This document shows positions 6,083 through 19,766 of a stretch of DNA of 24,654 nt, piece by piece. Source of the stretch: a virus (Duplodnaviria; Heunggongvirae; Uroviricota; Caudoviricetes); IMG/VR virus record IMGVR_UViG_3300045988_113752, positions 1 through 24,654 of that record, one strand, 5' to 3'. Numbering within the stretch: position 1 is the first letter of the stretch; each line of letters starts with the position of its first letter. Under the pieces are notes generated by a model. It was not told the origin of the DNA. It saw nothing but the letters and a program-made list of their open reading frames with translations, and ran no database searches. The translations under genes were made by a program, and so were the position numbers.

Positions 6083-6627
6083 TGTGCGATCCGGTTATTG
6101 CTGGTGGCGCAATGCTCGCCATGAGTGGCATTCAGGCATACACCCAGTACCAACAGGGAAAGTATGCCTCGAAGGTTGCAGAAGCGAACGCAGATATAGC
6201 CACTGCTCAGGCAAATGATGCAATAAACAGAGGTAACGCTGAAGCTGAGCAACGGCGCAGAGAGACCCGACAGCGGCTTGGTACACAGGCGGCGACAATG
6301 GGGGCTACCGGCGCTGATTTATCTACAGGTAACGCGCTGGATATATTTGGCGACACTGCCCAGTTTGGCGCTCTTGATTCTCTGACGACGGTGAATAACG
6401 CGCAACGCGAGGCTTACGGTTATCAGGTTCAGGCTGCCAACTATAAAGCAGAAGCCAGTTCAGCCCGTAAACAGGGGAATGTGGGATCAGCAACAACATT
6501 GCTCACTGCGCCTCTGAAGGCATACGGTGCGTACCAGATGTTTGGTGGGACGTGGAGTCCGTTTACTCAAAGCACCCCTGCGCCAATCGGGGCAGCAGCA
6601 GGAACCAGATTACCCGGAGGATTATAA
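6082..6627 (+). CDS. Internal virion protein (hypothetical), Ala/Gly/Gln-rich
   Basis: 181 aa with a hydrophobic N-terminus, coupled (TAATG) to flanking genes. Positioned like T7 gp14. Confidence 0.5.
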   Translation: MCDPVIAGGAMLAMSGIQAYTQYQQGKYASKVAEANADIATAQANDAINRGNAEAEQRRRETRQRLGTQAATMGATGADLSTGNALDIFGDTAQFGALDSLTTVNNAQREAYGYQVQAANYKAEASSARKQGNVGSATTLLTAPLKAYGAYQMFGGTWSPFTQSTPAPIGAAAGTRLPGGL

Positions 6628-9344
6628 TGCCAGTCGTACCAACAGTATCCGGACGCCAGGTGCAAAGTCGTGGTGTGCAAACCGGTGGTTTTCAGACCTT
6701 CGATGTTCCTCAAGCAGGTCAGGTGCTGGCGAATGTCGCAGATCAGTATGCGGTGGCATATGGTGAAGCCAGGCAGAAAGCGAATGTTGCATTGTCTCAG
6801 GATGCCATCCTTCAGCTTAATCAGCGCAGCAATGAACGTCTTTATAACCCTCAAACCGGTTTTTATGCACAACAAGGCAAAAATGCGATTGGTAAGGGGC
6901 AAGAGTACATATCTGGATTTGATCAGGATGTGGAAGAAATAGCTGCTTCATTGACTGATGAAGCAGCAAGAAATATGTTTTTGCAACAAGCCAGAACACA
7001 GAAAATTCAGTTCAGTACTGGAGTTCTCAGACATGAGATAGGGCAGACAAATGCCTATGAAGATGAGCAATATCAGGCAACGAGAAAATTATGGATACAA
7101 AATGAAGCGGATGCCTGGAATGACCCGCAAACTGCCACTTTAGCCAGAAATTCCAGAATGGTAGCCATTGCCAGATATGGAGCTGCCAGGGGATGGTCAC
7201 AAGAACGCATTCTGGAAGAAATAGAAAGTGATGATCGCCGTGCCACAGAAATGCGGGCGAAGAATTATGCCGCTGCCAATCCAGAAGGATGGCTAAATGG
7301 TCTGTTTCAGAAAAATGATTCTGGAGGCATGGACATGCGTGCCATACGCCTTGTTGAATCAGGTGATCGACATTTTAATCCTGATGGTAGTCTTCTTGAA
7401 GGACCGATAACATCTTCTGGAGAGAGAGCCCAGGGGAAATACCAGTTAATGCCGGGCACAGGGAAAGAACTGGCGGCCAAGCGTGGCGTTAAATACAACC
7501 CTACGGACGAACAACAGCATGAAATGCTCGCCAGTGACTATGTAAATCAACTGTATGGTAAGTACGGCTCCGAAATATTGACCGGAGCAGCATATAACTG
7601 GGGGATGGGTAACGTGGATAAACTGATCGCCAAAGTCGGTGATCCACGTAAAGGTGAAATATCAGAAGAAGAATTTATCCGAAATCTTCCATCAGAAACA
7701 CAAGGGTGGCTTTCCCGATATAGAAAAAATAAAACTGGAATGGATCCGCTGACTATTTATCAAATAGATAACCTTGCTAATAGTCAGATAGAAAAGCAAA
7801 GGAAGTTAATATTAGAACAGCTTGAGCCAGCTATTAATAACACCATGGCCCAGCTATATAACGGTGAGGTTCCAGATTATATACCGGCTCAGGAGACTAT
7901 CATCAGGGGGTATGGAAAAAATGCAGATAAAATAATCAATCAACTGGATATAGCGATTGATAACGCGAGAATATTCCAGGCAATTCAGTATTTACCTCCT
8001 TCTCAGCAGCAAGAAGAAATGCAGAAAGTGAAGCCTGAGGTTAACGATCCTCACTATGCGTTAAAACTCGATGCTTACGGAAAATTGTCTGCATTGCTTC
8101 AGCGATCAAATGAAGCAATTCAGGCGCAACGTGATTCACGCAGATTCAATGAGGCGCTGACAATAGGTGAAAAATTAGACCCAAGCAACAAATCAATGCA
8201 GAAAGCTGCTGATTACACAGAAATGGCGCAGAACTTTCGTATTAATGATGCCTCCACTCATGATGGGGTTGTTCGGCTTGTGGCTCAGACTGGCATCATG
8301 CCTTCGCAGGTCATCACGCAGCTTTCAGCAGTATCCAGATCCAGCAATCAGGAAGTGGTTAAAAATGCAGCGAATTTGTTTAGTCGGTTATATGAAACAG
8401 ACAATGCATCTATTGGAAATATGCCGAAGGATATGCAGGGTTTTTATCTGACTGTTAAGCAACTAACAGATTCTGGCATGTCTGCTGATGCGGCTATCGA
8501 GCAGGCGCAGAACCTGACGTACAACCAGACCGATGCTCTTAAAGCTCAATTGGCATCAACGCAGAGTTCAAAAGAGTACAAAAATAATCGCAGCAAGGCG
8601 ATGAATTCTGCTGTCAGCAATATGGCGCAGTGGTTCCGTTGGGATCCGTCTGCGGATGACCAGACGCCGGAAGCAGCTAGATTCCGTAATGACTATCAGA
8701 CGCTGTATGACATTAACTACCGCGTTGCTGGTGGTAACGCTGACGTAGCGAAGCAAATGACCAACCAGCAGATAGCCCGCACCTGGAGTATCAGCGAGGT
8801 TAACGGAGAAGCGCAGTTTATGAAATATGCACCGGAGGCGCTTTATCAATATGGGCCGTCAGGCTGGCAGGCGGCGCAGTGGAAAGCTGAAAAAGAACGG
8901 CTGATGTACGGTGAGCGCAAAGAGATTATAACAACCAGTCCGACGTTGCTTGGGATCACGTCAGGTAATGCTCCTGTAGTTGAGACAAAAACCCCTGAGA
9001 GTCGTATTAATGGAGAATTATTCATAACCCCTGACGTGTTAACACCTCGTAATGGTGATTACGCCATTATGGTAAGAACTAAGGATGAAAATGGCATCGA
9101 TCGGGTCCAGCCGTTTTATAACAAACATGGGCGTCCTATGCGTTGGGAACCATCACTAGAAGATTGGGAACCTTATAAGAAAATGCAGCAGGAACGGGAG
9201 CAGTACGAGCAGGAAGAAATTATGCGTGGACAGGCTATACGAAACTTCAAAGACAAGCATCGCGCTCTGGATGAGCAGTATCAGCGCCTGCATAACGAAC
9301 GTATGGACAAATTTAAAGATTACTTTTCGTGGGGATCTAAATAA
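6627..9344 (+). CDS. Internal virion/ejection protein with lytic transglycosylase (SLT-like) domain
   Basis: The track ORF begins at 6552, but ATG 6627 overlaps the upstream stop and has ggagg upstream. The protein carries ESG...GKYQLMPGTG...AAYNWGMGNV, matching the SLT catalytic-Glu / GLMQ / AYNAG motif pattern. Confidence 0.7.
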   Translation: MPVVPTVSGRQVQSRGVQTGGFQTFDVPQAGQVLANVADQYAVAYGEARQKANVALSQDAILQLNQRSNERLYNPQTGFYAQQGKNAIGKGQEYISGFDQDVEEIAASLTDEAARNMFLQQARTQKIQFSTGVLRHEIGQTNAYEDEQYQATRKLWIQNEADAWNDPQTATLARNSRMVAIARYGAARGWSQERILEEIESDDRRATEMRAKNYAAANPEGWLNGLFQKNDSGGMDMRAIRLVESGDRHFNPDGSLLEGPITSSGERAQGKYQLMPGTGKELAAKRGVKYNPTDEQQHEMLASDYVNQLYGKYGSEILTGAAYNWGMGNVDKLIAKVGDPRKGEISEEEFIRNLPSETQGWLSRYRKNKTGMDPLTIYQIDNLANSQIEKQRKLILEQLEPAINNTMAQLYNGEVPDYIPAQETIIRGYGKNADKIINQLDIAIDNARIFQAIQYLPPSQQQEEMQKVKPEVNDPHYALKLDAYGKLSALLQRSNEAIQAQRDSRRFNEALTIGEKLDPSNKSMQKAADYTEMAQNFRINDASTHDGVVRLVAQTGIMPSQVITQLSAVSRSSNQEVVKNAANLFSRLYETDNASIGNMPKDMQGFYLTVKQLTDSGMSADAAIEQAQNLTYNQTDALKAQLASTQSSKEYKNNRSKAMNSAVSNMAQWFRWDPSADDQTPEAARFRNDYQTLYDINYRVAGGNADVAKQMTNQQIARTWSISEVNGEAQFMKYAPEALYQYGPSGWQAAQWKAEKERLMYGERKEIITTSPTLLGITSGNAPVVETKTPESRINGELFITPDVLTPRNGDYAIMVRTKDENGIDRVQPFYNKHGRPMRWEPSLEDWEPYKKMQQEREQYEQEEIMRGQAIRNFKDKHRALDEQYQRLHNERMDKFKDYFSWGSK

Positions 9345-12300
9345 TGCCAGTTTATGCACAAGCTGAAGATCTTAATAACGGACTGATCCCGTCAGGTAAT
9401 GTTTTGCCGGAACAAACTGGGTTTGATGTTGCCCTTCCGGAAGGGGCTAATCCTGAGCCATTGCCACCGGAGCCTTCCGTATGGGGGGCTGCAATGCGAC
9501 AGAACAATATTCTGGCTGGTTTTTTCCGACCAGCCAGACAGTTTGAACCGGTCGAAGGTTATAACCCATATGCTGATAAAAATGAGTTGCACGGTTATGA
9601 ATACTGGGGGGCGAAATTTGCAGATTCCCGATCGCCAGAGGAAACGGCGTGGATTAAGCAGCAGATAGATGATGAAAATGAAGACAGACGTTTATTGTCT
9701 GATGCTGGCGTAGTTGGAACCCTTGCCAGTATTGCTGCGGGAATGGATCCGGTTACTGTTGCGTCAATGTTTATCCCCGGTGCTCAAGGAGGGGCACTGG
9801 CGCGTATTGGCTCACAGATTGCGATTGGTGCAGCCGGTACAGCATTAAGCGAGGTTGTGCTGAATAATCAGCAAATAACACGCTCATGGGGTGAAAGTGC
9901 CGCTCACATTGCAGCGGGTGCGATGATGAGCGGCGTGTTTGCCAGTGCTGGTGTTGCGCTTTCGCCATCCGTCCGGGCTGCAGCCACGCGTGAGGTTGCT
10001 GATGCTCTTGATAATATGAGCATTACATCAGCGACTGACAGGGCTGCCGCTTCGCTTTCTGATGGTGGTAGTGTTGGTGCTATGAAAATTGATACAGCGA
10101 CTCTGGATGATTTAACCCCTGTTTCCGGTGGGGTGGTTGGAAAGGCTGCATGGAAAGCAGGGAGCTATCTTACTCCTTTGACAAGGTTAATGGAGTCTCC
10201 GTCCAAGACAGTGCGAAAAACAACGCTGGAGTTAGCCGAAAATAATTTCACCCTTAAAGGAAATGAAAGGGGGATTGAAACACCGGTAGCTGTAGAAACC
10301 CGTACACGTGGATGGCAGCGTGAAGAAGCTGCTGTTGTTGTCGGAAATAAACAGGCATACGCAAAGTATAAAGCTGATGGTGGTGACATGAGTTTTGATT
10401 CATTTCGTCAGCAGGTTGGGAATGCTATGCGAAGCGGTGATGTGCATGCTAATCCTGTTGTTCAGGAAACGGCGCAGGCGATGCGAACTGTATTAAATCG
10501 GGTGAAGGTTGAAATGCAAAAGCTTGGTTTATTGCCGCCAGATGAAGAACTGAAAGCATTAGGCCAGGCAAGCTATTTCCCACGTATATATAAAGTTGGA
10601 AAAATAATCAGTGAACGCGATAAATTTCGACGTATTTTGGTTGACTGGTGGTCGAGAGGCAATAAAACACTGGATCCTGAGGATGCTGAAATTGCAGCGG
10701 ATATCGTAATTAATAAAATTACTGGTGCTAAGGTTCCACAGGATTTTGTCAGCGTATTTTCTGTAAAAGCCGCAGGTAGTACGAAAGAAAGAACATTAAA
10801 TGTGCCTGATAGTCTTATCAGGGATTATCTCGAAAGTGATGTGAATTACGTTCTACAACGTCATATCCGTGAAGCGGCAGCAGAAATTGAGTTGACGAGA
10901 ACATTTGGCAAACGAACTATGACAGAGCGTCTGCAATTAATTGAGGACGAATATGACAGTCTGTTACGGGAAGTGCCTGAAAAAATAAAGGCAAAATATG
11001 ACGAAAGTGTGGCAAATCTGAAAGCACGTTATGAGAGCAATGGTGAAGTTGTTCCTCAGGGTAAACTCGATTCATTAATGCGAAAGTACGAAAAGGAATT
11101 ACGGAAAGAACAGTCCAGACTTTCAAAATCAAGAGCAAATGATCTCAGAGACATAACAGCATTACGCGATCGTCTTGTTGGTACATATGGTATGCCTGAT
11201 GACCCGTCTTCGTTTTTTGTTCGTGCTGGCGCTTTTCTGCGGGATGTGAACTTCACGACAAAACTCGGTGGAATGACAGTATCAGCTATTCCAGATCTGG
11301 CCAGAGGGGTTATGGTTAATGGTTTCCGTAACTCCATGAAAGGCTATGCTTCTCAGATATCCCAATCACCGGCATTTAAGGCCAGCAAAGAAGAGATGTT
11401 GAAGATGGGGATTGGATTGGAAACTGTACTACATTCACGTTCTCGTGCAATTGGTGATCTTGTTGACAGTTCTTCCAGGACAACAGCAGTCGAAGCAGGA
11501 ATGGAGCGAATTACTGATGCCTTCGGCAAGCTGACACTCATGGATCGATTTAATGACATAAACAAATCCATGAACGGAATGCTCACGTCAGACGGTATTT
11601 TGTCTGGTGCGTTTTCTGCACGTCGCATGGCAAAACTCGGTATCAACGACAATATGGCTGCGCGTATTCGCAGTGAGTTCGAGAAACATGGTGAGGTAAT
11701 TGATGGATGGCACATTGGTAACTTTGATAAATGGGACGATCAGTACGTTGCCGGAGTATTCCAGTCAGCGGTTCTGAAAGACGTTAATAACACTATCATT
11801 ACCCCCGGTATTGGTGACACACCTTTATGGGCGAGTACTCCAATGGGGCGAACGATATTTCAGTTTAAATCATTCACAACGGCTTCATACAACCGTGCGC
11901 TACTTGGTGGGTTACAGGAAGGAACTGCGCAATTTTATTATGGCACTGCATTTCAGATTGCTCTTGGCTCACTGGTCTATGCGCTTAAAGAAGCATCGAA
12001 AGGGAAAAATGTTGACTGGTCACCAGAGAAGCTGGTGCTTGAGGGTATAGATAGATCCGGTATTCTTGGGCCATTGATGGAATATAACAATATGGCTGAA
12101 AAGGCTACTGGTGGTGCTGTTGGGCTGGGGGCTTTATTTGGCACTGGCACACAGTCTAGGTATGCCAGTCGTGGATTCGTAGGATCTCTATTCGGACCGT
12201 CATTTGGTCTTGCGGATAGCATCATTGATGTGACCGCAGGAGTGTTGAATGGTGATGCCGGTGATCGTATTGTGCATAATGTCCGAACCCTGATACCCGG

Positions 12301-12358
12301 CAATAACCTGTTCTGGATTGCGCCACTAATAAACCAGGTGGATCCGGTGATGCGGTGA
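9344..12358 (+). CDS. Large internal virion/ejection protein (hypothetical)
   Basis: 1004-aa ORF coupled (TAATG) to the upstream gene. Last gene of the structural operon before the AT-rich accessory region. Confidence 0.6.
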   Translation: MPVYAQAEDLNNGLIPSGNVLPEQTGFDVALPEGANPEPLPPEPSVWGAAMRQNNILAGFFRPARQFEPVEGYNPYADKNELHGYEYWGAKFADSRSPEETAWIKQQIDDENEDRRLLSDAGVVGTLASIAAGMDPVTVASMFIPGAQGGALARIGSQIAIGAAGTALSEVVLNNQQITRSWGESAAHIAAGAMMSGVFASAGVALSPSVRAAATREVADALDNMSITSATDRAAASLSDGGSVGAMKIDTATLDDLTPVSGGVVGKAAWKAGSYLTPLTRLMESPSKTVRKTTLELAENNFTLKGNERGIETPVAVETRTRGWQREEAAVVVGNKQAYAKYKADGGDMSFDSFRQQVGNAMRSGDVHANPVVQETAQAMRTVLNRVKVEMQKLGLLPPDEELKALGQASYFPRIYKVGKIISERDKFRRILVDWWSRGNKTLDPEDAEIAADIVINKITGAKVPQDFVSVFSVKAAGSTKERTLNVPDSLIRDYLESDVNYVLQRHIREAAAEIELTRTFGKRTMTERLQLIEDEYDSLLREVPEKIKAKYDESVANLKARYESNGEVVPQGKLDSLMRKYEKELRKEQSRLSKSRANDLRDITALRDRLVGTYGMPDDPSSFFVRAGAFLRDVNFTTKLGGMTVSAIPDLARGVMVNGFRNSMKGYASQISQSPAFKASKEEMLKMGIGLETVLHSRSRAIGDLVDSSSRTTAVEAGMERITDAFGKLTLMDRFNDINKSMNGMLTSDGILSGAFSARRMAKLGINDNMAARIRSEFEKHGEVIDGWHIGNFDKWDDQYVAGVFQSAVLKDVNNTIITPGIGDTPLWASTPMGRTIFQFKSFTTASYNRALLGGLQEGTAQFYYGTAFQIALGSLVYALKEASKGKNVDWSPEKLVLEGIDRSGILGPLMEYNNMAEKATGGAVGLGALFGTGTQSRYASRGFVGSLFGPSFGLADSIIDVTAGVLNGDAGDRIVHNVRTLIPGNNLFWIAPLINQVDPVMR

Positions 12359-12369
12359 GTTAAACACCT

Positions 12370-12933
12370 TTAGCATGATTCAGGGGAAACCCCAATATTA
12401 AATATGAGTGTCTCCCCTGAATCAGCATAATAATGTAATATTATTGACTTACGTTGTTTTCTTGCTTCGTAGAATAAACGCTCTTGCGGCGATAATTTGT
12501 GAAAACTGCCGGATGCACAATATATGTTTTTTAACTTTTCGCGGGTTTCTTTTATTGTATCTTCTGATATGTATTTTAGGTATTTATCCGTATAGATGTT
12601 GCTACTATAAGAAATTAATGTTTTGCTGTTGTTGTGATGTATTGTATTTTTATCGTTGAAGTCTGTATTTTTATTTACTGTCATTAGGTTTTTAATGATT
12701 ACATGTAATACAATAGTCTCCCCATCATCAATTCCATATTTGATGTCATAGTCAGTATATTTATTTGTTATACCGCTTCCTGATAGCGGCACTATGTACT
12801 CTGAGAAAAATGAGTTTGCCGCGTGACTATCAAGAGCAATAGCAGTTTGTTTGTGGTAAAAATAAAACAATATTGAGAGAGTCAAAATAATAGCGACGCC
12901 TAATGCAACCTTTAATATAGATATGGTTTTCAA
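12370..12933 (-). CDS. AT-rich accessory gene: signal-anchored or secreted protein of unknown function (candidate superinfection-exclusion-type moron)
   Basis: The track ORF (12370..12981) starts at TTG with no RBS. An internal TTG at 12933 has a perfect AAGGAG 7 nt upstream and gives N-terminus MKTISILKVALGVAIILTLSILFYFY, a signal peptide or anchor. The region is strongly AT-rich compared with its flanks. Confidence 0.45.
   Translation of the reverse strand: MKTISILKVALGVAIILTLSILFYFYHKQTAIALDSHAANSFFSEYIVPLSGSGITNKYTDYDIKYGIDDGETIVLHVIIKNLMTVNKNTDFNDKNTIHHNNSKTLISYSSNIYTDKYLKYISEDTIKETREKLKNIYCASGSFHKLSPQERLFYEARKQRKSIILHYYADSGETLIFNIGVSPESC
12377..12423. other. 11-bp inverted repeat (gattcagggga ... 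tcccctgaatc) with 25-nt loop, at the junction of convergent genes
   Basis: Perfect inverted repeat read directly from the sequence. It overlaps the 3' end of the minus-strand ORF. Confidence 0.3.
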
Positions 12934-13023
12934 AATATCGCTCCTTGTTGTAACATACATCAGTAATGTGGCGTTTTTCAATTGTATTAAAGACGTGTAA
13001 TATGTACACGCCTTTTGCTCTTC

Positions 13024-13455
13024 CTATTCAGGTATTTCAATTCCAAAACCATCTGCATCCCATGAGTTTTCACAGATGATGTAACCTAGTTCATTGAGCT
13101 TATTAAATGTTTTTTCAAAGATGATCTGGTAATCATTATCTGCAAGTGATTCCAGTTCAAGGTCATTAAGGTTTATATAAAAACTTGTATGTCCAAGTGT
13201 TATTTTCTTATTAATTTCATTAAAGGTTCTTTTGAAAATAATATTTGATATTTCATGTCGTGCATTGTTTGCAATGATTTTTGCTTCATAAGCAGAAATT
13301 ACGTCATCTTCATGAATATCTTTCAGAAAACTGGTGTCAAGACGTTGTACTATTTCAGCGTTCATTGATCGCTTATTGGCTTTTGCAGAAATTTCTATTT
13401 TTTCTTTTACTTCGACGGGAAGTCTGATCCTTAGTTGTGGATCTTCTCTGCTCAT
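13024..13455 (-). CDS. Mnt-like ribbon-helix-helix repressor with ~100-aa C-terminal extension
   Basis: N-terminus MSREDPQLRIRLPVEVKEKIEISAKANKRSMNAEIVQRL resembles P22 Mnt/Arc RHH domains as I recall them. Transcribed divergently from the Arc-like gene. Start chosen at the ATG giving MSRED; the track ORF starts 10 codons upstream. Confidence 0.55.
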   Translation of the reverse strand: MSREDPQLRIRLPVEVKEKIEISAKANKRSMNAEIVQRLDTSFLKDIHEDDVISAYEAKIIANNARHEISNIIFKRTFNEINKKITLGHTSFYINLNDLELESLADNDYQIIFEKTFNKLNELGYIICENSWDADGFGIEIPE

Positions 13456-13575
13456 GTTCTTCACCAAATATTGAGTTACTTGCAATGATTGAAGTATGCC
13501 TCACCGTGTGCTTGACATCAATGACGCACGGTGTGACAATTATTTTGCCCCACGGTGGGGCTAAGGAGATATGAA
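13456..13575. promoter_or_regulatory. Divergent promoter/operator region between the Mnt-like and Arc-like genes
   Basis: TTGACA at 13512-13517 with a weak -10 (gacaat) 17 nt downstream on the plus strand. Inverted half-sites CACCGTG (13502-13508) and CACGGTG (13527-13533) flank the -35; a third CACGGTG lies at 13551-13557. Confidence 0.45.
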
Positions 13576-13743
13576 ATGCAAAAAGCAAAAGAGATGTGTC
13601 AACGACGAGTTCGTTTTCCGGACGATGTGAAGTTAGCTATTGAAAGAAATGGCGAAAAAGAATGCCGAAAGTTCAATACAGAGATTATCTATCAGCTGAG
13701 GAAAGTGTATGGACTCACTGGTGAGAAGAATAGCGTGGCATAA
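13576..13743 (+). CDS. Arc-like ribbon-helix-helix repressor
   Basis: 55 aa from ATG 13576, with taaggag 8 nt upstream. RVRFPDDVKLAIERNGEKECRKFNTEIIYQLRKVY resembles P22 Arc. Directly upstream of the antirepressor gene. Confidence 0.6.
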   Translation: MQKAKEMCQRRVRFPDDVKLAIERNGEKECRKFNTEIIYQLRKVYGLTGEKNSVA

Positions 13744-13814
13744 AACAGCGAAGCCCCACGGTGGCCAGACCGTCAGGGCTTCAGTATCGTAAAACTACGT
13801 ATAGGAATTAACGA
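13742..13814 (-). ncRNA. Candidate sar-like antisense RNA covering the antirepressor RBS/start
   Basis: Minus-strand promoter TTGATA-N17-TATACT (plus coordinates 13849-13844 and 13826-13821) fires antisense across the ant RBS (13802-13805) and ATG (13816). A strong hairpin (13750-13782) is followed on the minus strand by GCUGUUUUA. Predicted length is ~70 nt. Confidence 0.4.
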
Positions 13815-13815
13815 C

Positions 13816-14754
13816 ATGACGAGTATAGCAACAGCAGTATCTACTATCAACGTGCCATTCCACGGCGCAGAGCTTTATGTTGTCAATCACAACGGCGAAC
13901 CGTATACCCCAATGAAACCTATCGTTGAGGGAATGGGGCTAGACTGGAAATCTCAACATAAGAAGATTTCTCAACGCTTCTCGAAGGGTATGGTGGAAAT
14001 CACCATACCTTCTGCCGGTGGGGTGCAAGCCATGATTTGTATGGCTTTACGAAAATTGGCAGCTTGGTTGAACAGCATCAGCCCTAACAAAGTCCGCCCT
14101 GAAATCCGCGACAAGGTAATCCAGTATCAGGAAGAGTGTGACGATGTGCTCTACGAGTACTGGACTAAAGGCCATGTGGTTAACCCACGCAAAGCTAAAA
14201 AGGCGTTGCCGGGTAAAATAACAACTGAACAGCAGGAAGCCATTAAACAACTCGTCATGAGTCGCGGTCAGTCTCTGCCAAAAGAAAAACAGGCTAAGGC
14301 GATGATCACCATGTGGTCGTCACTGAAATCTCATTTTGGCTGTTCGTACAAAGAAATTGGTGAAGATCAATTTGCCGAAGCGTTGTCTCTTGTTGCTCGG
14401 GTTCCGCTTGAAGGGGAGTATCTCCCTGCTGGATCTGCATCAGAGAATGATGAAGTGGCAGTCAAGATGTTAGATGCGCTTCGTGAGGCAATTAAAACAC
14501 AGACAAAATGTTATGGTTATCCACTGAAGCCCGGCTACCGTAGCCTGATTCATTCGCCGTCTGGTGTTCTCGGCCTGACGGAGAACTCACTGCTGATGAA
14601 TCTGCTGAACCAGTTACAGGAAGACGGGCACGATGTATCGGGCGCGGCGGCGGAGCTGACCACCATGTTCTGCTACATCGTCGGTGTGAGCAAATGCCTG
14701 CGTGATATCCAGACGCACGCGGAATACATCAACGACAAGGCAGGGTTCTTCTGA
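13816..14754 (+). CDS. Antirepressor-like protein (Ant-type N-terminal region plus shared C-terminal domain)
   Basis: 312 aa immediately downstream of the Arc-like gene, in the immI-like arrangement. The C-terminal ~78 aa are identical to the C-terminus of the Bro-N protein at 16006..16698. Confidence 0.55.
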   Translation: MTSIATAVSTINVPFHGAELYVVNHNGEPYTPMKPIVEGMGLDWKSQHKKISQRFSKGMVEITIPSAGGVQAMICMALRKLAAWLNSISPNKVRPEIRDKVIQYQEECDDVLYEYWTKGHVVNPRKAKKALPGKITTEQQEAIKQLVMSRGQSLPKEKQAKAMITMWSSLKSHFGCSYKEIGEDQFAEALSLVARVPLEGEYLPAGSASENDEVAVKMLDALREAIKTQTKCYGYPLKPGYRSLIHSPSGVLGLTENSLLMNLLNQLQEDGHDVSGAAAELTTMFCYIVGVSKCLRDIQTHAEYINDKAGFF

Positions 14755-14804: not shown

Positions 14805-14829
14805 AGGCCGCTTTCGCGGCCTTGTTTTT
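14805..14829. terminator. Bidirectional intrinsic terminator (AGGCCGC-tttc-GCGGCCT then TGTTTTT)
   Basis: 7-bp GC-rich stem, TTTC loop and T-run on the plus strand after the ant stop. It sits between convergent genes and is preceded by the perfect palindrome GTGACATGTCAC (14793-14804). Confidence 0.5.
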
Positions 14830-14989
14830 AACGAATGCCACCGCCGCCAGGGCGGGAATCCGCAGAACGCCCACCGCAGCGGGAGCCGTCAGCGGCAGTA
14901 TCGCTGTCGTGCTGACAACGACCGGCAAAGGCCTGAGTTGAAGCTACCAGAGACAACAAAACGAACAGTGCAGCAAATGCTTTTTTCAT
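14828..14989 (-). CDS. Small secreted Cys-containing peptide (hypothetical)
   Basis: Internal ATG at 14989 gives MKKAFAALFVLLSLVASTQAFA, a classic signal peptide, followed by a ~31-aa Gly/Arg/Asp-rich mature part with 2 Cys. The track ORF extends to 15061. Confidence 0.4.
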   Translation of the reverse strand: MKKAFAALFVLLSLVASTQAFAGRCQHDSDTAADGSRCGGRSADSRPGGGGIR

Positions 14990-15082: not shown

Positions 15083-15631
15083 TTACTTTTCTTCAGGTTT
15101 GTTGTCTTCAGATTTCTTCTTGATGCTTGGTTTTTGTCTAAGAACGAAAATACCAGCCACTGCAACAACTGTACCGATCACTGTGCCAGCTAGAACTTCA
15201 TGACCTGTTAAACCTAATAATGTTGCACAAGCTACTGTAAAAATAGTTGCACTCAGGCCAAACCACTGCCCACGTTTATCTCTATTAATAGCCCCGTCAA
15301 GTGCCTTTTCCTCCATTTTCTGGCGGTGAGCAAACTCCTTCTCCGTCAGCTGGAAGATGCGTTCGGGGGCATCAGGTAAAATATCCTGATACCCGCGAAG
15401 CAGATAGGGGGGAGGAAGCGGACCCTGAAACGCATGGTGAGCGACAACTATCTCCTGAATTTCAGGGCGATCAAGAACTCTTGTGAAGGCATCTGGGTGT
15501 TGAATGATCTCGTTACTTAGCCCTTCCTCAACTTCCTCGAACTCAGTTTCTTCGTTATCACTTGGTTGCCCAATAGATTTTTGCATATTTGTCGAAGGAC
15601 ATTCCTTTAGCTTCTGGTTTTCCTCTTGCAT
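15083..15631 (-). CDS. Membrane protein with acidic N-terminus and two C-terminal TM helices (DUF2335-like by memory)
   Basis: 182-aa ORF with aggga upstream. Contains a PPPYLLRGYQDILPDAPERIF motif and two hydrophobic helices near the C-terminus. Its 5' end overlaps the upstream gene by 74 nt in another frame. Confidence 0.45.
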   Translation of the reverse strand: MQEENQKLKECPSTNMQKSIGQPSDNEETEFEEVEEGLSNEIIQHPDAFTRVLDRPEIQEIVVAHHAFQGPLPPPYLLRGYQDILPDAPERIFQLTEKEFAHRQKMEEKALDGAINRDKRGQWFGLSATIFTVACATLLGLTGHEVLAGTVIGTVVAVAGIFVLRQKPSIKKKSEDNKPEEK

Positions 15632-15987: not shown

Positions 15988-16240
15988 TCCCTGTGCCGCC
16001 GCCCGTCAGAAGAACCCTGCTTTGTCGTTGATGTACTCCGCGTGCGTCTGGATATCACGCAGGCATTTGCTCACACCGACGATGTAGCAGAACATGGTGG
16101 TCAACTCCGCCGCCGCGCCCGATACGTCGTGCCCGTCTTCCTGTAACTGGTTTAGCAGATTCATCAGCAGTGAGTTCTCCGTCAGGCCGAGAACACCAGA
16201 CGGCGAATGAATCAGGCTGCGGTAGCCGGGCTTCAGTGGG
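15988..16240. repeat. Inverted repeat, right copy (partner of 14521..14774)
   Basis: Reverse complement matches the left copy at ~97%. It encodes the C-terminal 78 aa of the Bro-N antirepressor. Confidence 0.8.
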
Positions 16241-16698
16241 GCGCTGTAGGTTTTGTTCTCTACCTTCATTGCCTGCATCACTGCTGATGCTGTGGCGTTG
16301 GCTACCTGGTCGGCAACCATCTTTATGCGTTCTTCCTGCGGGAGCGAGTTTTTAATGTAACTTCCGGTGCGGCGGATCTGAGGAAGAACCTCACCTGTAA
16401 CCCATTCAAGAAATCTGAATGCTCTCGTTCCCTCAGTCATTGCCTCTTTGCAACGCAGAATAAGGATGTAGAGACCTGATTCTGAAACGATGGATAGTTC
16501 TTGTATTCCACCAGGGGTCTGTATTGAATACAGCCCCTTTTTGTTCCAGCCTTTTTTATCAAGTTTTCTCGCTTGTGTAACATCAATATTCAAAGCATTG
16601 CACACATCTTTGGTGACAAACCAAGGTTCTCCGTCAATCATGAACATACGGATCTGGCAGGATGACTCAAAGGAAAAGATGGAAGGTTTGGTATTCAT
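16006..16698 (-). CDS. Bro-N domain antirepressor with shared C-terminal domain
   Basis: Start chosen at ATG 16698 (AAGGTGA 5 nt upstream), giving MNTKPSIFSFESSCQIRMFMIDGEPWFVTKDVCNALNI, a Bro-N/antirepressor N-terminal signature. The C-terminus is identical to the Ant at 13816..14754. Confidence 0.65.
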   Translation of the reverse strand: MNTKPSIFSFESSCQIRMFMIDGEPWFVTKDVCNALNIDVTQARKLDKKGWNKKGLYSIQTPGGIQELSIVSESGLYILILRCKEAMTEGTRAFRFLEWVTGEVLPQIRRTGSYIKNSLPQEERIKMVADQVANATASAVMQAMKVENKTYSAPLKPGYRSLIHSPSGVLGLTENSLLMNLLNQLQEDGHDVSGAAAELTTMFCYIVGVSKCLRDIQTHAEYINDKAGFF

Positions 16699-17011
16699 AG
16701 CGATCACCTTTGTAGTTAGGTTAATCACCACCGCTGAGACCAATCAGATGGTGGTGAACTGTGCAGAGTTGGTCTTACCGGCTACAAAGGAACCCGGCGC
16801 ACCTTTCGGTGCCCCCACACAGCCCACCATAGAATAGGTGCGCTTTACACATAAAAAAACCGCTTATGCGGCATATGTGCCTCTGTAGTAATCCGGGAGA
16901 CCAATCCCGGCACTGGATTTTGCCAGTGCCCGATTACTATGGCACAAGAGGAGTGCAATGTAAATTTACCGAAAAGGTAAATATAAGCACTCCTATTGGT
17001 AATTTCAAAAC

Positions 17012-17465: not shown

Positions 17466-19766
17466 ATGACGGTCTCAACCGAAGTTGACCACAACGAATA
17501 CACAGGTAACGGCGTTACGACATCATTTCCGTATACCTTCCGTATTTTCAAAAAATCCGACCTGGTTGTTCAGGTGTCTGACCTTAACGGTAACGTTACA
17601 AAACTAGTGCTGGATGCTGGTTATACGGTAACAGGGGCGGGAACTTATAGTGGCGGTGCAGTGGTTCTTCCGTCGCCGCTTGCTGCTGGCTGGCGAATCA
17701 CGATAGAGCGTGTGCTTGATGTGGTGCAGGAGACTGATCTTCGCAATCAGGGAAAATTTTTCCCCGAAGTTCATGAGGATGCATTTGACTACCTGACGAT
17801 GCTGATCCAGCGATGTTTTGGGTGGTTCAGACGTGCATTGATGAAACCATCTTTGCTTGCAAAATATTACGATGCAAAGCAAAACAGAATATCTAACCTT
17901 GCCGATCCATCACTTGAGCAGGACGCTGTAAATAATCGCTCAATGCGTAATTATGTCGATGCTGCAATCGCCGGAGTTATTGGTGGTTTTGGTTGGTTTA
18001 TTCAGTATGGTTCTGGAGCAGTATACCGAACGTTCCAGGATAAGATGAGAGACACCGTTAGTGTTCGCGATTTTGGGGCAAAAGGCGATGGTATAACAGA
18101 TGATACATCTGCATTGATTCTGGCTGCAGAATATGCACGAGAATCATCCAGAACATTACGAGCGGAAGGTAATTTTATTATTACGGAGACATTAAATCTT
18201 CGTAATGTCAGCCTCGAAATGACCAATGCTGTTTTTACCATATCCCACTCAGGGATAGGGGTATTGCTTGGCGGGAATGCATCAAACCCTAACAACCCAA
18301 GACAAAACTTCGGAACGATTATCAGAAATTCTGGTATTTCATCTGAAACGACACCGGATATTCGTATTATCGGGGCAAAAGGGCAGCATATTAACATTGA
18401 GCGTTGCGACTACTTACAGTTATATGCAAACTCTGATGATTCAGTATATGAAACAGATTATTCTATAGCCTACTCAACCTTTAACCTGAAAAAGGTCGAT
18501 ACAATTCATTTTCTTGGTGTAGTTAGAGGTTGGATAAACGAAAACAAGTTTTACCTAAACAGGACAAATAATGTGATTATTGCTGATAATCCGTATTCAC
18601 ATAATCACAACAAGTTTTTTGGTGGAACGATGGAGAATACTGGGGTTATTGACATTCAGCGTGGTAATAATAATCATTTTTACGGACTCCGTTTTGAGCG
18701 CAGACCAGACAACCCAGATGACACACAAAGAATTAATTTTGGTAGTTATACGTGGAATAATTCTGTTCAGGCATCATGGCTTAGCTTTTCTGCATATACC
18801 AATGAACCATATAACCCAAACAATCTTGTAACTGTCACTGATAATGGTAATGGAAATGCTGTATATCATATTCAGGAAGAACTAACTAATGAAGTGTCGC
18901 TTTTTTCAGTGAGTGAGAAAACGCCATTTTTATCAAGCGTTAATATGGGAAGTTCAGATACACCTGATTATGTTACAGATGTAAAAAGTGTGCGAAATTT
19001 AATTCATCTTGTTAATGGTAGTTTTGCTATTGGACGTAACTTCAGGACAATTTGGGAATCAGGTGATATAAGCGTCAGGAATGGCGATGTGTTTGCATTT
19101 ACTTCTGATGTCAGCGCATTCCGCATAAGGGTTTATGGAATTGATGAGAATGGCAGTGTTATTACAAATGAGCCTGAAGGGATTGGTTTTCCAGGGGCTT
19201 CATGGGATGATGAAAACAGTCGTTTTACTACCCAGTCTAACATCGGTAATGCAAAGTTTAGGATAACCGACAAAGGAGGAGTAAAATCAATAAGGGTTGT
19301 CATTCTGTCGGGTGGTAATACATCTGGAATTACCTTCAAATATATCAGATTTACCGGAAGATATTATAAGGATAGTTCTGCGTATCCTCGAAGAAATATG
19401 GATGATCATAATATCCACAGGTCTGGTGCTGTGATGTTTAATTCATCACTTGATGTCAAAATGGAAAATATAGCATCAGGTGTTACCTGTTATGTAAAAG
19501 ATGCATCTGATGTTAAGGTTAATATATTAAGAAATAGATACGTTGTTAAATCGGTGTCCGGGAATACTATATATGTGCGTAACCAGGATGAAATTTCATA
19601 TTCTGGTCCTTATGATGACTTTAAGGTTGCATATACTAGCGGGGCAAAAAATATGATTTCTGATGTTTCAGGAATTTCATCTAATGCAATAAAGTTATCA
19701 GGTAGTGTTCCTTCTGAAATATCAGAAGGAAGCAATATTGATTTGATTAAAATATTAACGAAGTAG
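17466..19766 (+). CDS. Tailspike protein: gp17-like N-terminal anchor plus pectate-lyase-type beta-helix depolymerase domain
   Basis: 766 aa with GGAG RBS. The N-terminal ~150 aa follow the pattern of T7 gp17-type tail fibre N-termini. The central DFGAKGDGITDDTSAL is the hallmark of pectate-lyase-fold tailspikes. The C-terminal half is AT-rich. Confidence 0.8.
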   Translation: MTVSTEVDHNEYTGNGVTTSFPYTFRIFKKSDLVVQVSDLNGNVTKLVLDAGYTVTGAGTYSGGAVVLPSPLAAGWRITIERVLDVVQETDLRNQGKFFPEVHEDAFDYLTMLIQRCFGWFRRALMKPSLLAKYYDAKQNRISNLADPSLEQDAVNNRSMRNYVDAAIAGVIGGFGWFIQYGSGAVYRTFQDKMRDTVSVRDFGAKGDGITDDTSALILAAEYARESSRTLRAEGNFIITETLNLRNVSLEMTNAVFTISHSGIGVLLGGNASNPNNPRQNFGTIIRNSGISSETTPDIRIIGAKGQHINIERCDYLQLYANSDDSVYETDYSIAYSTFNLKKVDTIHFLGVVRGWINENKFYLNRTNNVIIADNPYSHNHNKFFGGTMENTGVIDIQRGNNNHFYGLRFERRPDNPDDTQRINFGSYTWNNSVQASWLSFSAYTNEPYNPNNLVTVTDNGNGNAVYHIQEELTNEVSLFSVSEKTPFLSSVNMGSSDTPDYVTDVKSVRNLIHLVNGSFAIGRNFRTIWESGDISVRNGDVFAFTSDVSAFRIRVYGIDENGSVITNEPEGIGFPGASWDDENSRFTTQSNIGNAKFRITDKGGVKSIRVVILSGGNTSGITFKYIRFTGRYYKDSSAYPRRNMDDHNIHRSGAVMFNSSLDVKMENIASGVTCYVKDASDVKVNILRNRYVVKSVSGNTIYVRNQDEISYSGPYDDFKVAYTSGAKNMISDVSGISSNAIKLSGSVPSEISEGSNIDLIKILTK

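Follow-up and report, generated by a model that had tools for sequence, protein, structure and literature searches.

What is the role of an AT-rich gene that lies head-on against the last ejection protein gene of a prophage? The question is raised by a 24,654-nucleotide sequence from a virus of the class Caudoviricetes (IMG/VR record IMGVR_UViG_3300045988_113752, positions 1 to 24,654), analyzed here over its whole length and hereafter called the window. Its minus strand carries a gene for a protein of 187 amino acids (coding sequence with stop codon, 12370-12933; hereafter the target), which ends 11 bp from the plus-strand gene for an internal virion protein of 1,004 amino acids. The function that we tentatively infer for the target, largely by analogy, is superinfection exclusion at the DNA entry step by a structurally new, periplasm-facing accessory protein. 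A sequence-only reading of the window had considered a divergent or novel exclusion or abortive infection protein in the position that phage P22 uses for sieA. A candidate exclusion protein has since become the likelier of the two, since the fixed position of the family, its fast divergence, the polymorphism of the genomic slot, and a natural gene fusion make a role at DNA entry more plausible; a relationship to SieA did not hold up.

A small family of conserved prophage genes

The target is read from a TTG start codon (12933-12931) within an open reading frame spanning 12370-12981. As the sequence-only reading had described, an AAGGAG Shine-Dalgarno sequence precedes it (12946-12941, minus strand), with a spacer of 7 nucleotides. 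The same start is used by the PHROG profile (residues 1 to 187 of 187; 427 bits), by the annotation of Escherichia phage TL-2011b (NC_019445), and by RefSeq. The protein is gp39 of TL-2011b, which corresponds to UniProt A0A2J1C6S7 and to phrog_8033, a group of unknown function. TL-2011b is a prophage of an enterohemorrhagic Escherichia coli O103:H25 outbreak strain, and window positions 12000-13950 share 99.1% identity with it. Furthermore, an identical protein of 187 residues is encoded on 767 contigs from E. coli, E. albertii, and E. marmotae, and the whole AT-rich island that holds the gene is present in 36 of 5,426 complete E. coli genomes.

The search for remote homologues recovered a prophage family reaching down to 26% identity. 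Five clusters related to the target were found by a word-indexed search of 5.8 billion proteins, 17 relatives by HMMER run exhaustively against 1.84 billion representatives, and 15 by a profile search, the last including hypothetical proteins of Serratia fonticola, Providencia, and Proteus. As delimited by these sequences, the family is small and belongs to prophages of Escherichia, Serratia, Providencia, and Proteus. An alignment of 12 members (26 to 47% identity to the target) contains five invariant residues (P49, L134, Y138, C139, and K162) and eight near-invariant ones (Y46, Y62, G67, Y168, Y169, F178, P184, and C187). Among E. coli alleles, the ratio of nonsynonymous to synonymous polymorphism (pN/pS) is 0.23 to 0.33 for the target, 0.04 for the adjacent mnt-like gene, and 0.05 to 0.21 for the virion protein gene; the counts are small and indicate purifying yet comparatively relaxed selection on the target. 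Judged by its sequence conservation, the target is a real, conserved gene.

No credible match to the target or to the 12 family members was obtained in Pfam, NCBIfam, or PADLOC, and no functional data on gp39 were found in the literature mentioning TL-2011b. Although many genomes already list the gene as hypothetical, we found no description, in the libraries covered, of the family or its fold affinity, of its fixed position, of the polymorphism of the slot, or of the fusion.

Fixed position, rapid divergence, and a variable slot

Target homologues are convergent with the last internal virion protein gene in all 33 loci, at a distance of 0 to 29 bp. Seven of these loci, a diverse set from E. 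coli relatives, Providencia, Serratia, and metagenomes, have gaps of 2 to 29 bp and virion proteins of 936 to 1,133 amino acids. The same convergent arrangement recurs in 26 IMG/VR loci with gaps of 0 to 11 bp; nine of them have no reverse-strand gene other than the target. The position beside the virion protein gene is kept down to approximately 28% identity of the target. The gene on the far side of the target varies, being Arc/Mnt-like, Bro-N, a gene for a secreted protein of 175 residues, or one for a membrane protein of 98 residues.

The target evolves in an arms-race-like manner, far faster than the virion protein and independently of it. The internal virion proteins of loci L007 and L011 are 86% identical and their targets 39%; for L011 and L012, the values are 82% and 33%. 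In pairs of loci whose virion proteins are 82 to 86% identical, the targets are just 33 to 41% identical. The reverse is found between L004 and L014, with 46% identity in the internal virion protein and 78% in the target.

The end of the virion protein gene is a mosaic joint, formed by its last 45 to 55 bp (12300-12354, plus strand). Of 80 matching complete E. coli genomes, 44 match the joint at 98% or more, over query positions 1 to 55 only, and diverge completely past the stop codon. The content of the slot was inspected in three of the 44 genomes and consists of an N-terminally anchored protein of 175 residues (phrog_21690), a two-segment membrane protein of 98 residues (phrog_21905), and a cysteine-rich secreted protein of 282 residues beside this 98-residue gene, respectively. 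In EC.W1-9 the slot holds a gene for a 283-residue protein (phrog_6118), and in ST512-KPC3phi13.3 one for a 204-residue protein. These replacement proteins are encoded by AT-rich DNA and are of unknown function. Overall, the genes in or bordering the slot (L017 5081-5608, L016 5078-5374, L009 5472-6323, L010 5480-6094, L004 7352-7879, L011 3223-3519, and L012 5934-6230) mostly have a GC content of 0.34 to 0.38, the 98-residue gene of L012 reaching 0.48. Their products are mostly envelope targeted: an N-anchored protein of 175 residues, 98-residue proteins with two or three membrane segments, a cysteine-rich secreted protein of 283 residues, and a secreted protein of 175 residues. The position is a hypervariable slot for mostly envelope-targeted accessory proteins, bounded by a sharp recombination joint.

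A trace of the joint was also seen in strain MCJCHV-1 (L018 5001-5045), where 45 bp of it survive as an unannotated intergenic scar. The scar lies between the genes for a 282-residue secreted protein and a 98-residue membrane protein, downstream of an internal virion protein of a different type.

An AT-rich island behind the structural genes

The sequence-only reading had reported an abrupt shift to AT-rich composition after the last ejection protein gene, and sliding-window analysis confirms it. The GC content drops from 0.45-0.49 to 0.30-0.35 near position 12350, just before the stop codon of the 1,004-residue gene, and recovers near 13500. Over 12359-13023 it is 0.329, and over the target coding sequence 0.324; the whole window stands at 0.463 and the 1,004-residue gene at 0.464. 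The lowest-GC window of 665 bp in the whole sequence begins at 12591, inside the island, and the 1.9% of 665-bp windows that are equally low in GC all fall within it. The same reading had also taken the island to hold a single gene. This is correct for 12359-13023, where the target is the only gene, but the AT-rich tract extends to approximately 13500 and includes a second minus-strand gene, which is mnt-like (13024-13455; GC 0.322). The full island of about 1.15 kb (12359-13500; GC 0.33) is the most AT-rich part of the window.

All homologues are AT-rich relative to their own locus (GC of 0.33 to 0.37 versus 0.40 to 0.52). Since this is a family-wide trait in hosts that differ in GC content, the AT-richness is no evidence of recent import, and recent horizontal acquisition was rejected as its cause. 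The target stands on the minus strand against plus-strand structural genes, has a GC content of 0.32 versus 0.46, and is replaced in similar prophages, all of which are features of a moron.

In a comparison of the window with E. coli N25 (L019), synonymous divergence (pS) is 0.07 to 0.08 in the island and 0.017 in the virion protein gene, an approximately fourfold difference. Such a difference would be expected if the sequences flanking the joint had recombined separately in the past.

Predicted export and fold of the target protein

A hydropathy scan places the sole hydrophobic segment of the target at residues 3 to 26, approximately, in agreement with the signal-anchor-like start noticed earlier. 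The predicted export signal (codons 1 to 27; 12853-12933, minus strand) consists of K2 and K8 and then an uncharged hydrophobic run, and a possible cleavage motif, A-I-A, occupies residues 31 to 33. Such an N terminus could act as a signal anchor or, alternatively, as a long signal peptide. Wherever a full-length member has a clear start codon, one to three N-terminal lysine or arginine residues are followed by 16 to 25 uncharged residues. Textbook cleavable signal peptides occur in nine IMG/VR loci (MKKLIPLLLIFPFIAFA, with SPD after the cleavage site) and in P0007 (MKKTLLILLLSSPLATFA, with ATD after it). Because members mix long anchor-like segments with cleavable signal peptides, delivery of the domain to the periplasm appears to be the conserved property; membrane insertion is not a conserved feature, since some members swap the segment for a cleavable signal peptide. 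The target product is, from its sequence, predicted to be exported to the envelope, and in this allele an uncleaved anchor probably holds the domain at the inner membrane.

The target has two cysteines. Cys139 (codon 12517-12519, minus strand) is invariant and lies at the end of helix α2, and the near-invariant C-terminal residue Cys187 (codon 12373-12375, minus strand) is its presumed disulfide partner; across the family, the pair is 41 to 50 residues apart. The export signal together with the conserved cysteine pair suggests a disulfide-bonded periplasmic domain. Reading the protein as a lipoprotein was rejected for want of a canonical lipobox: the N-terminal segment of the target contains no cysteine, and relatives that have one there carry F, L, I, or V before it, not G, A, or S, as judged by reading the sequences and not by a dedicated predictor.

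The exported part is predicted to form an alpha/beta domain (codons 34 to 187; 12373-12834, minus strand). An AlphaFold2 model from a three-sequence alignment was unusable (predicted local distance difference test score, pLDDT, 59.7) and was replaced by a model built from 12 sequences with the anchor removed, which reached a pLDDT of 80.7 and a predicted template modeling score (pTM) of 0.76. In that model, helix α1 (36-46) precedes strands β1 to β3 (62-87), the insertion, helix α2 (124-139) ending in Cys139, helix α3 (149-159), strands β4 (163-169) and β5 (176-182), a short helix, and then Cys187. Only the insertion is modeled without confidence. This clade-specific stretch of 29 residues (codons 85 to 113; 12595-12681, minus strand), of which the E. 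coli allele P0001 lacks 7 residues, sits exactly after β3.

Fold searches with the model returned as nearest structures PA3611 (PDB 3npd) and the secretin pilotins AspS and EpsS. AspS has the order α1, β1-β3, α2, α3, β4, β5, α4 and a conserved α2-α4 disulfide that it shares with PA3611, in which an extra helix follows β3 (PMC3542185). The modeled target has the same order of elements as the AspS, GspS-beta (YghG), and EpsS pilotins, and the family cysteines at the end of α2 and at the C terminus agree with the published disulfide position, as far as alignment and model allow. These pilotins are small, periplasm-facing proteins that catch a short partner segment, the S-domain of a secretin. They are outer membrane lipoproteins with a lipobox and come from secretion system operons, in contrast to the target family, which is prophage borne and has no canonical lipobox: all 33 target family loci are in a prophage context, whereas yghG sits in an E. 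coli secretion gene cluster. PA3611 is a non-lipoprotein periplasmic protein that has been suggested to bind secretin (PMC3542185). It is 8 to 9% identical to the target, with no detectable sequence homology, and is encoded by a chromosomal gene of Pseudomonas aeruginosa and not by a phage. Since the function of PA3611 is itself unknown, the match informs on fold and compartment and not on activity. In the model, then, the target is PA3611/AspS-like in fold and not a member of that family. A Foldseek search of viral predicted structures (BFVD) gave no match at E values up to 0.001.

One further candidate came from a search of PDB sequences with the family profile, which gave a summed E value of 2e-6 to three repeats of an iota-carbonic anhydrase (7c5x), the single repeats scoring E values of about 1, over the region LSG..A..F..Y.VP ... 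DY.v.YG.DD..I. It was rejected, as the order of secondary structure elements in the model differs and the fold searches did not return this protein.

A natural fusion with an ejection protein motif

The only direct hint of a partner of the target comes, at the level of sequence, from a natural fusion. Protein P0024 (L014 2958-3752), together with P0091, a second sequence from another assembly, carries the family domain and, in frame with it, approximately 60 residues homologous to virion protein residues 44 to 119, approximately. The motif copy in P0024 matches a Providencia protein (E value of 1e-16), its own neighbor (5e-13), and the 1,004-residue protein of the window (2e-12). It is no assembly chimera, since it has diverged to 37 to 50% identity. 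In P0024 and P0091 the motif (EGYNP...SPEET...IK) is followed by a hydrophobic segment and a basic tail, and in the virion protein it likewise precedes hydrophobic, glycine-rich segments. The fusion would thus appear to mimic the membrane-proximal N-terminal module of the ejection protein, displayed beside a pilotin-like domain.

Proposed function and alternative explanations

From these observations we infer a periplasmic disulfide, expression in the lysogen, a binding partner, and an exclusion phenotype, which would be connected as follows. The target would be an accessory gene, or moron, transcribed against the late operon. Its expression in the lysogen would depend on a weak promoter of its own or on cotranscription with the mnt-like maintenance repressor gene. 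The N-terminal signal would route the protein through the Sec pathway and leave a domain of approximately 155 residues, probably disulfide bonded, in the periplasm; in some relatives, signal peptidase would free the domain. There, the domain would bind a periplasm-exposed segment of the DNA delivery conduit of an incoming podovirus, the favored candidate ligand being the large internal virion protein's N-terminal motif. A conduit bound in this way would not assemble or would not function, and the outcome would be exclusion at DNA entry, analogous to that by P22 SieA and exerted by an unrelated protein. A more specific version, which we consider doubtful, is that the pilotin-fold domain captures the N-terminal motif of the virion protein before its insertion into the inner membrane, aborting the conduit, and that the P0024/P0091 fusion is a built-in decoy.

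Several results weigh against an exclusion function. The target shows no codivergence with the adjacent virion protein or with its C-terminal 300 residues (Spearman coefficient of -0.12), and the C-terminal tail of the virion protein is equally conserved with or without a target beside it. Consequently, the adjacency may reflect no more than a site, at the end of a gene block, where insertions are tolerated. The fusion was seen in just two closely related, metagenome-derived sequences of the Providencia clade. The fold affinity has no counterpart in profile comparisons: the AspS Pfam model PF16549 was matched by none of the 12 members at E values up to 1, and hhalign of the family against a 10-sequence GspS-beta (YghG) alignment gave a probability of 0.26%. 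With these negatives, and with neither a lipobox nor a secretion operon, membership in the AspS/GspS-beta family was rejected. A promoter scan found fewer promoter-like matches in the region than in shuffled sequence, and a gene this AT-rich might be silenced by H-NS. Finally, family members are named hypothetical in every database.

Of the other explanations, that of a host-directed periplasmic accessory protein survives best, and we regard it as possible but unlikely. The target would then bind a secretin or an outer membrane assembly, or would serve as an orphan immunity protein that protects from toxins acting in the periplasm, and would alter the fitness or virulence of the lysogen. The nearest folds point in this direction (PA3611, AspS, and EpsS, with PA3611 as a suggested secretin binder), and the prophage is frequent in pathogenic E. 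coli of human and livestock origin. The target, however, lacks both a lipobox and a link to secretion system genes, the family is limited to one prophage lineage and always lies beside an internal virion protein gene, and the fusion partner in P0024 is a phage ejection protein motif and not a host protein. A weak match to the immunity family Imm42 (E value of 0.0044) would also favor it, but it occurs in one of the 12 members, far below the curated cutoffs, and was rejected as noise.

Strict adjacency to the last internal virion protein gene in 33 loci, and a variant fused to a motif of that protein, would equally suit a role in the phage's own lytic cycle, either as a helper or chaperone for the internal virion proteins or as a lysis or release factor; pilotin-like folds do serve as assembly chaperones. 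We nevertheless hold this to be improbable. The target is opposite to the late operon and grouped with the immI genes on the lysogeny side, a periplasmic protein synthesized once the DNA has entered would come too late for that ejection, and the target evolves much faster than structural genes. Moreover, L017 (with a near-identical C terminus of the virion protein) and EC.W1-9 and ST512-KPC3phi13.3 (with a related virion protein) carry unrelated genes instead. Since close relatives do without it, the target is not essential for virions.

Abortive infection, in which a toxin-like membrane protein kills or arrests the infected cell, had been put forward by the sequence-only reading as an alternative to exclusion, and it agrees poorly with a small domain that would reside in the periplasm and has a conserved pair of cysteines. 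The target is membrane targeted, AT-rich, and prophage encoded, and a YafO-family toxin-like gene lies near it in TL-2011b. However, its single hydrophobic segment gives way to a cleavable signal peptide in some members, and infection cues in the cytoplasm or NAD-type substrates would be out of reach of a disulfide-bonded periplasmic domain. A weak ThsB/TIR-like match in PADLOC (E value of 0.0053; 15 bits) is missing in the 48%-identical homologue P0005 and was rejected as noise. We consider this explanation very unlikely. Last, a chance open reading frame or decaying remnant in an AT-rich spacer, as might be suspected from DNA with few stop-free constraints, a TTG start, and no known domain, is hardly credible for a gene with relatives at 26 to 99% identity, invariant residues in the family, a fold modeled with confidence, a pN/pS below 1, a strong, correctly spaced Shine-Dalgarno sequence, and intact copies on 767 contigs.

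On balance, superinfection exclusion at DNA entry would be the simplest reading of the target. How podovirus DNA is conducted across the periplasm, and how prophages sabotage this conduit, is poorly understood, and P22 SieA is the only well-studied example at this genomic position. The target would add an unrelated protein with a soluble domain, in the equivalent slot of a different podovirus lineage. It would also be a tractable probe, with a purifiable domain that lends itself to pull-down of its partner and to the mapping of escape mutants, and the slot is of interest for forecasting which hosts a phage can infect and where phage therapy may fail. Should it have no anti-phage activity, the target would remain an ordinary uncharacterized accessory gene.

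Genomic setting and expression signals

The plus-strand genes of the window encode a major head protein, tail proteins, small internal virion proteins, an SLT-domain protein of 930 residues (6552-9344), and the last internal virion, or ejection, protein of 1,004 residues (9344-12358; phrog_342 and phrog_16310). Relatives of the 1,004-residue protein occur in Klebsiella, E. coli, and many Vibrio podoviruses, and in related loci they adjoin a T7_gp14-like gene and an SLT-domain protein. No homology was detected between the 1,004-residue protein and P22 gene 16 (E value of 0.55). As a T7_gp14-like gene precedes the relatives in related loci, the virion module appears to be of the T7-like ejectosome type. 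By homology, the immI module alone is P22-like, and the virion module belongs to another lineage of internal virion proteins.

On the other side of the target, the mnt-like gene (13024-13455, minus strand) encodes 143 residues with an N-terminal Arc domain (PF03869; E value of 1e-14) and matches phrog_1388 over residues 11 to 153. P22 Mnt has 83 residues in comparison. The product combines a ribbon-helix-helix domain with a C-terminal domain of approximately 90 residues belonging to no known family. At third codon positions the gene is more AT-rich than the target (GC of 0.24), and in TL-2011b its N terminus is apparently disrupted, the annotated protein having 113 residues. It is followed by an Arc-like repressor gene (13576-13743, plus strand; 55 residues from the ATG used in the TL-2011b annotation), the sar antisense RNA (13747-13814, minus strand; Rfam RF00262, 44.8 bits versus a gathering score of 43), and the antirepressor gene ant, with a P22_AR_N domain (13816-14754, plus strand). 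An inverted repeat at 13497-13538 flanks a promoter-like TTGACA-17-GACAAT element (13512-13540, plus strand), a candidate operator and promoter for arc and ant. Its arms, TGCCTCACCGTG and CACGGTGTGACA, bracket the -35 hexamer of this promoter-like site, as would suit an operator. The leader of arc contains a GC-rich hairpin, GCCCCACGGTGGGGC (within 13497-13564), and a related element, CCCCACGGTGG, recurs in the sar region (13750-13782).

Two minus-strand genes follow ant. The first (14828-14989) encodes a protein of 53 residues with a classical signal peptide (MKKAFAALFVLLSLVASTQAFA, continuing with GRC), which is annotated as "transmembrane anchored protein" in TL-2011b and recurs in related prophages; the second (15083-15631) encodes a DUF2335 membrane protein (phrog_3996). 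Farther on, C4 antisense RNA (RF01695, 78.6 bits) and isrK RNA (RF01394, 74.7 bits) were found at 16747-16929 (minus strand), and directly downstream of them lies a Bro-N antirepressor-like gene (16006-16743, minus strand), the C-terminal part of which matches Ant-family PHROGs. The two RNAs ahead of a Bro-N gene suggest that a second, P1/P7-style antirepressor module is present besides the P22-style mnt/arc/sar/ant module. The tailspike gene (17466-19766) comes after these further antirepressor genes, and lysis genes are also contained in the window.

Signals that might drive the target are modest. The 90 bp that separate the mnt-like gene from the target (12934-13023, minus strand) contain a hairpin with an 11-bp stem (12989-13015) and two weak sigma-70-like promoter matches (13008-12981 and 12981-12952, minus strand), which are at the level of consensus only. 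In L002 an Arc/Mnt-like gene overlaps the target homologue by 17 nucleotides, which would imply cotranscription with a lysogeny maintenance gene. In L004 and L007 the target homologue is divergent from its neighbors, and in Providencia and Serratia it would therefore need its own promoter.

An inverted repeat of 24 plus 24 nucleotides (12376-12424) is predicted to form a very stable structure; it falls within the 17 final codons of the target and lies 18 nucleotides past the convergent stop codon. On the two strands, its hairpins have energies of -26 and -37 kcal/mol and z-scores of -4.75 and -5.80. The hairpin is kept with different codons in the 48%-identical homologue of L002 (z-score of -5.75) and is weaker or absent in distant homologues. 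The repeat, a candidate by its sequence and predicted folding, may be a two-way terminator or a stabilizer of RNA ends for both convergent transcripts.

Comparison with SieA and other blocks to DNA entry

Small, exported or membrane-bound proteins that stop DNA entry after adsorption are encoded by several phages, among them Sim of P1, Sp and Imm of T4, and gp15 of HK97. In bacteria, the HXS defense system employs a periplasmic effector that arrests DNA entry (PMC13128918). Searches of PHROGs, PADLOC, Pfam, and NCBIfam revealed no similarity between the target and Sim, Sp, Imm, gp15, or HXS, and the likeness to these systems is conceptual only.

The closest comparison is with SieA of P22. There, the order is gene 16 (plus strand), sieA, orf59a, and mnt (all minus strand), arc, ant, and gene 9; in the window it is the internal virion protein gene (plus strand), the target and the mnt-like gene (both minus strand), the arc-like gene, sar RNA, ant, and later the tailspike gene. 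The synteny with P22 noted by the sequence-only reading is thus correct in that the target holds the sieA slot beside a P22-like immI module, and it breaks down at the upstream gene, which is no homologue of gene 16; the ejection proteins adjoining SieA and the target are unrelated. The same reading had found the target not recognizably SieA, and this stands: BLASTP against P22 SieA gave an E value of 0.25, the target matches only phrog_8033 and SieA matches phrog_7745, and direct homology was rejected. The two proteins also differ in architecture. By the hydropathy scan, four hydrophobic segments are present in SieA, which lacks a soluble domain of appreciable size, whereas the target has one N-terminal segment and a folded, predicted periplasmic domain of approximately 155 residues with a cysteine pair.

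Apart from these differences, SieA and the target occupy the same slot in the same orientation, on the opposite strand beside mnt-arc-(sar)-ant; both genes are AT-rich relative to their flanks, and both products are envelope targeted. SieA sequence types share under 30% identity with each other (PMC10883804), and the target family is likewise split into very divergent types (26 to 48% identity). P22 SieA blocks DNA injection, and mutations that escape it map to the ejection proteins gp16 and gp20 (PMC10883804). SieA acts on the ejection protein conduit, and by analogy this same conduit would be the point of action of the target.

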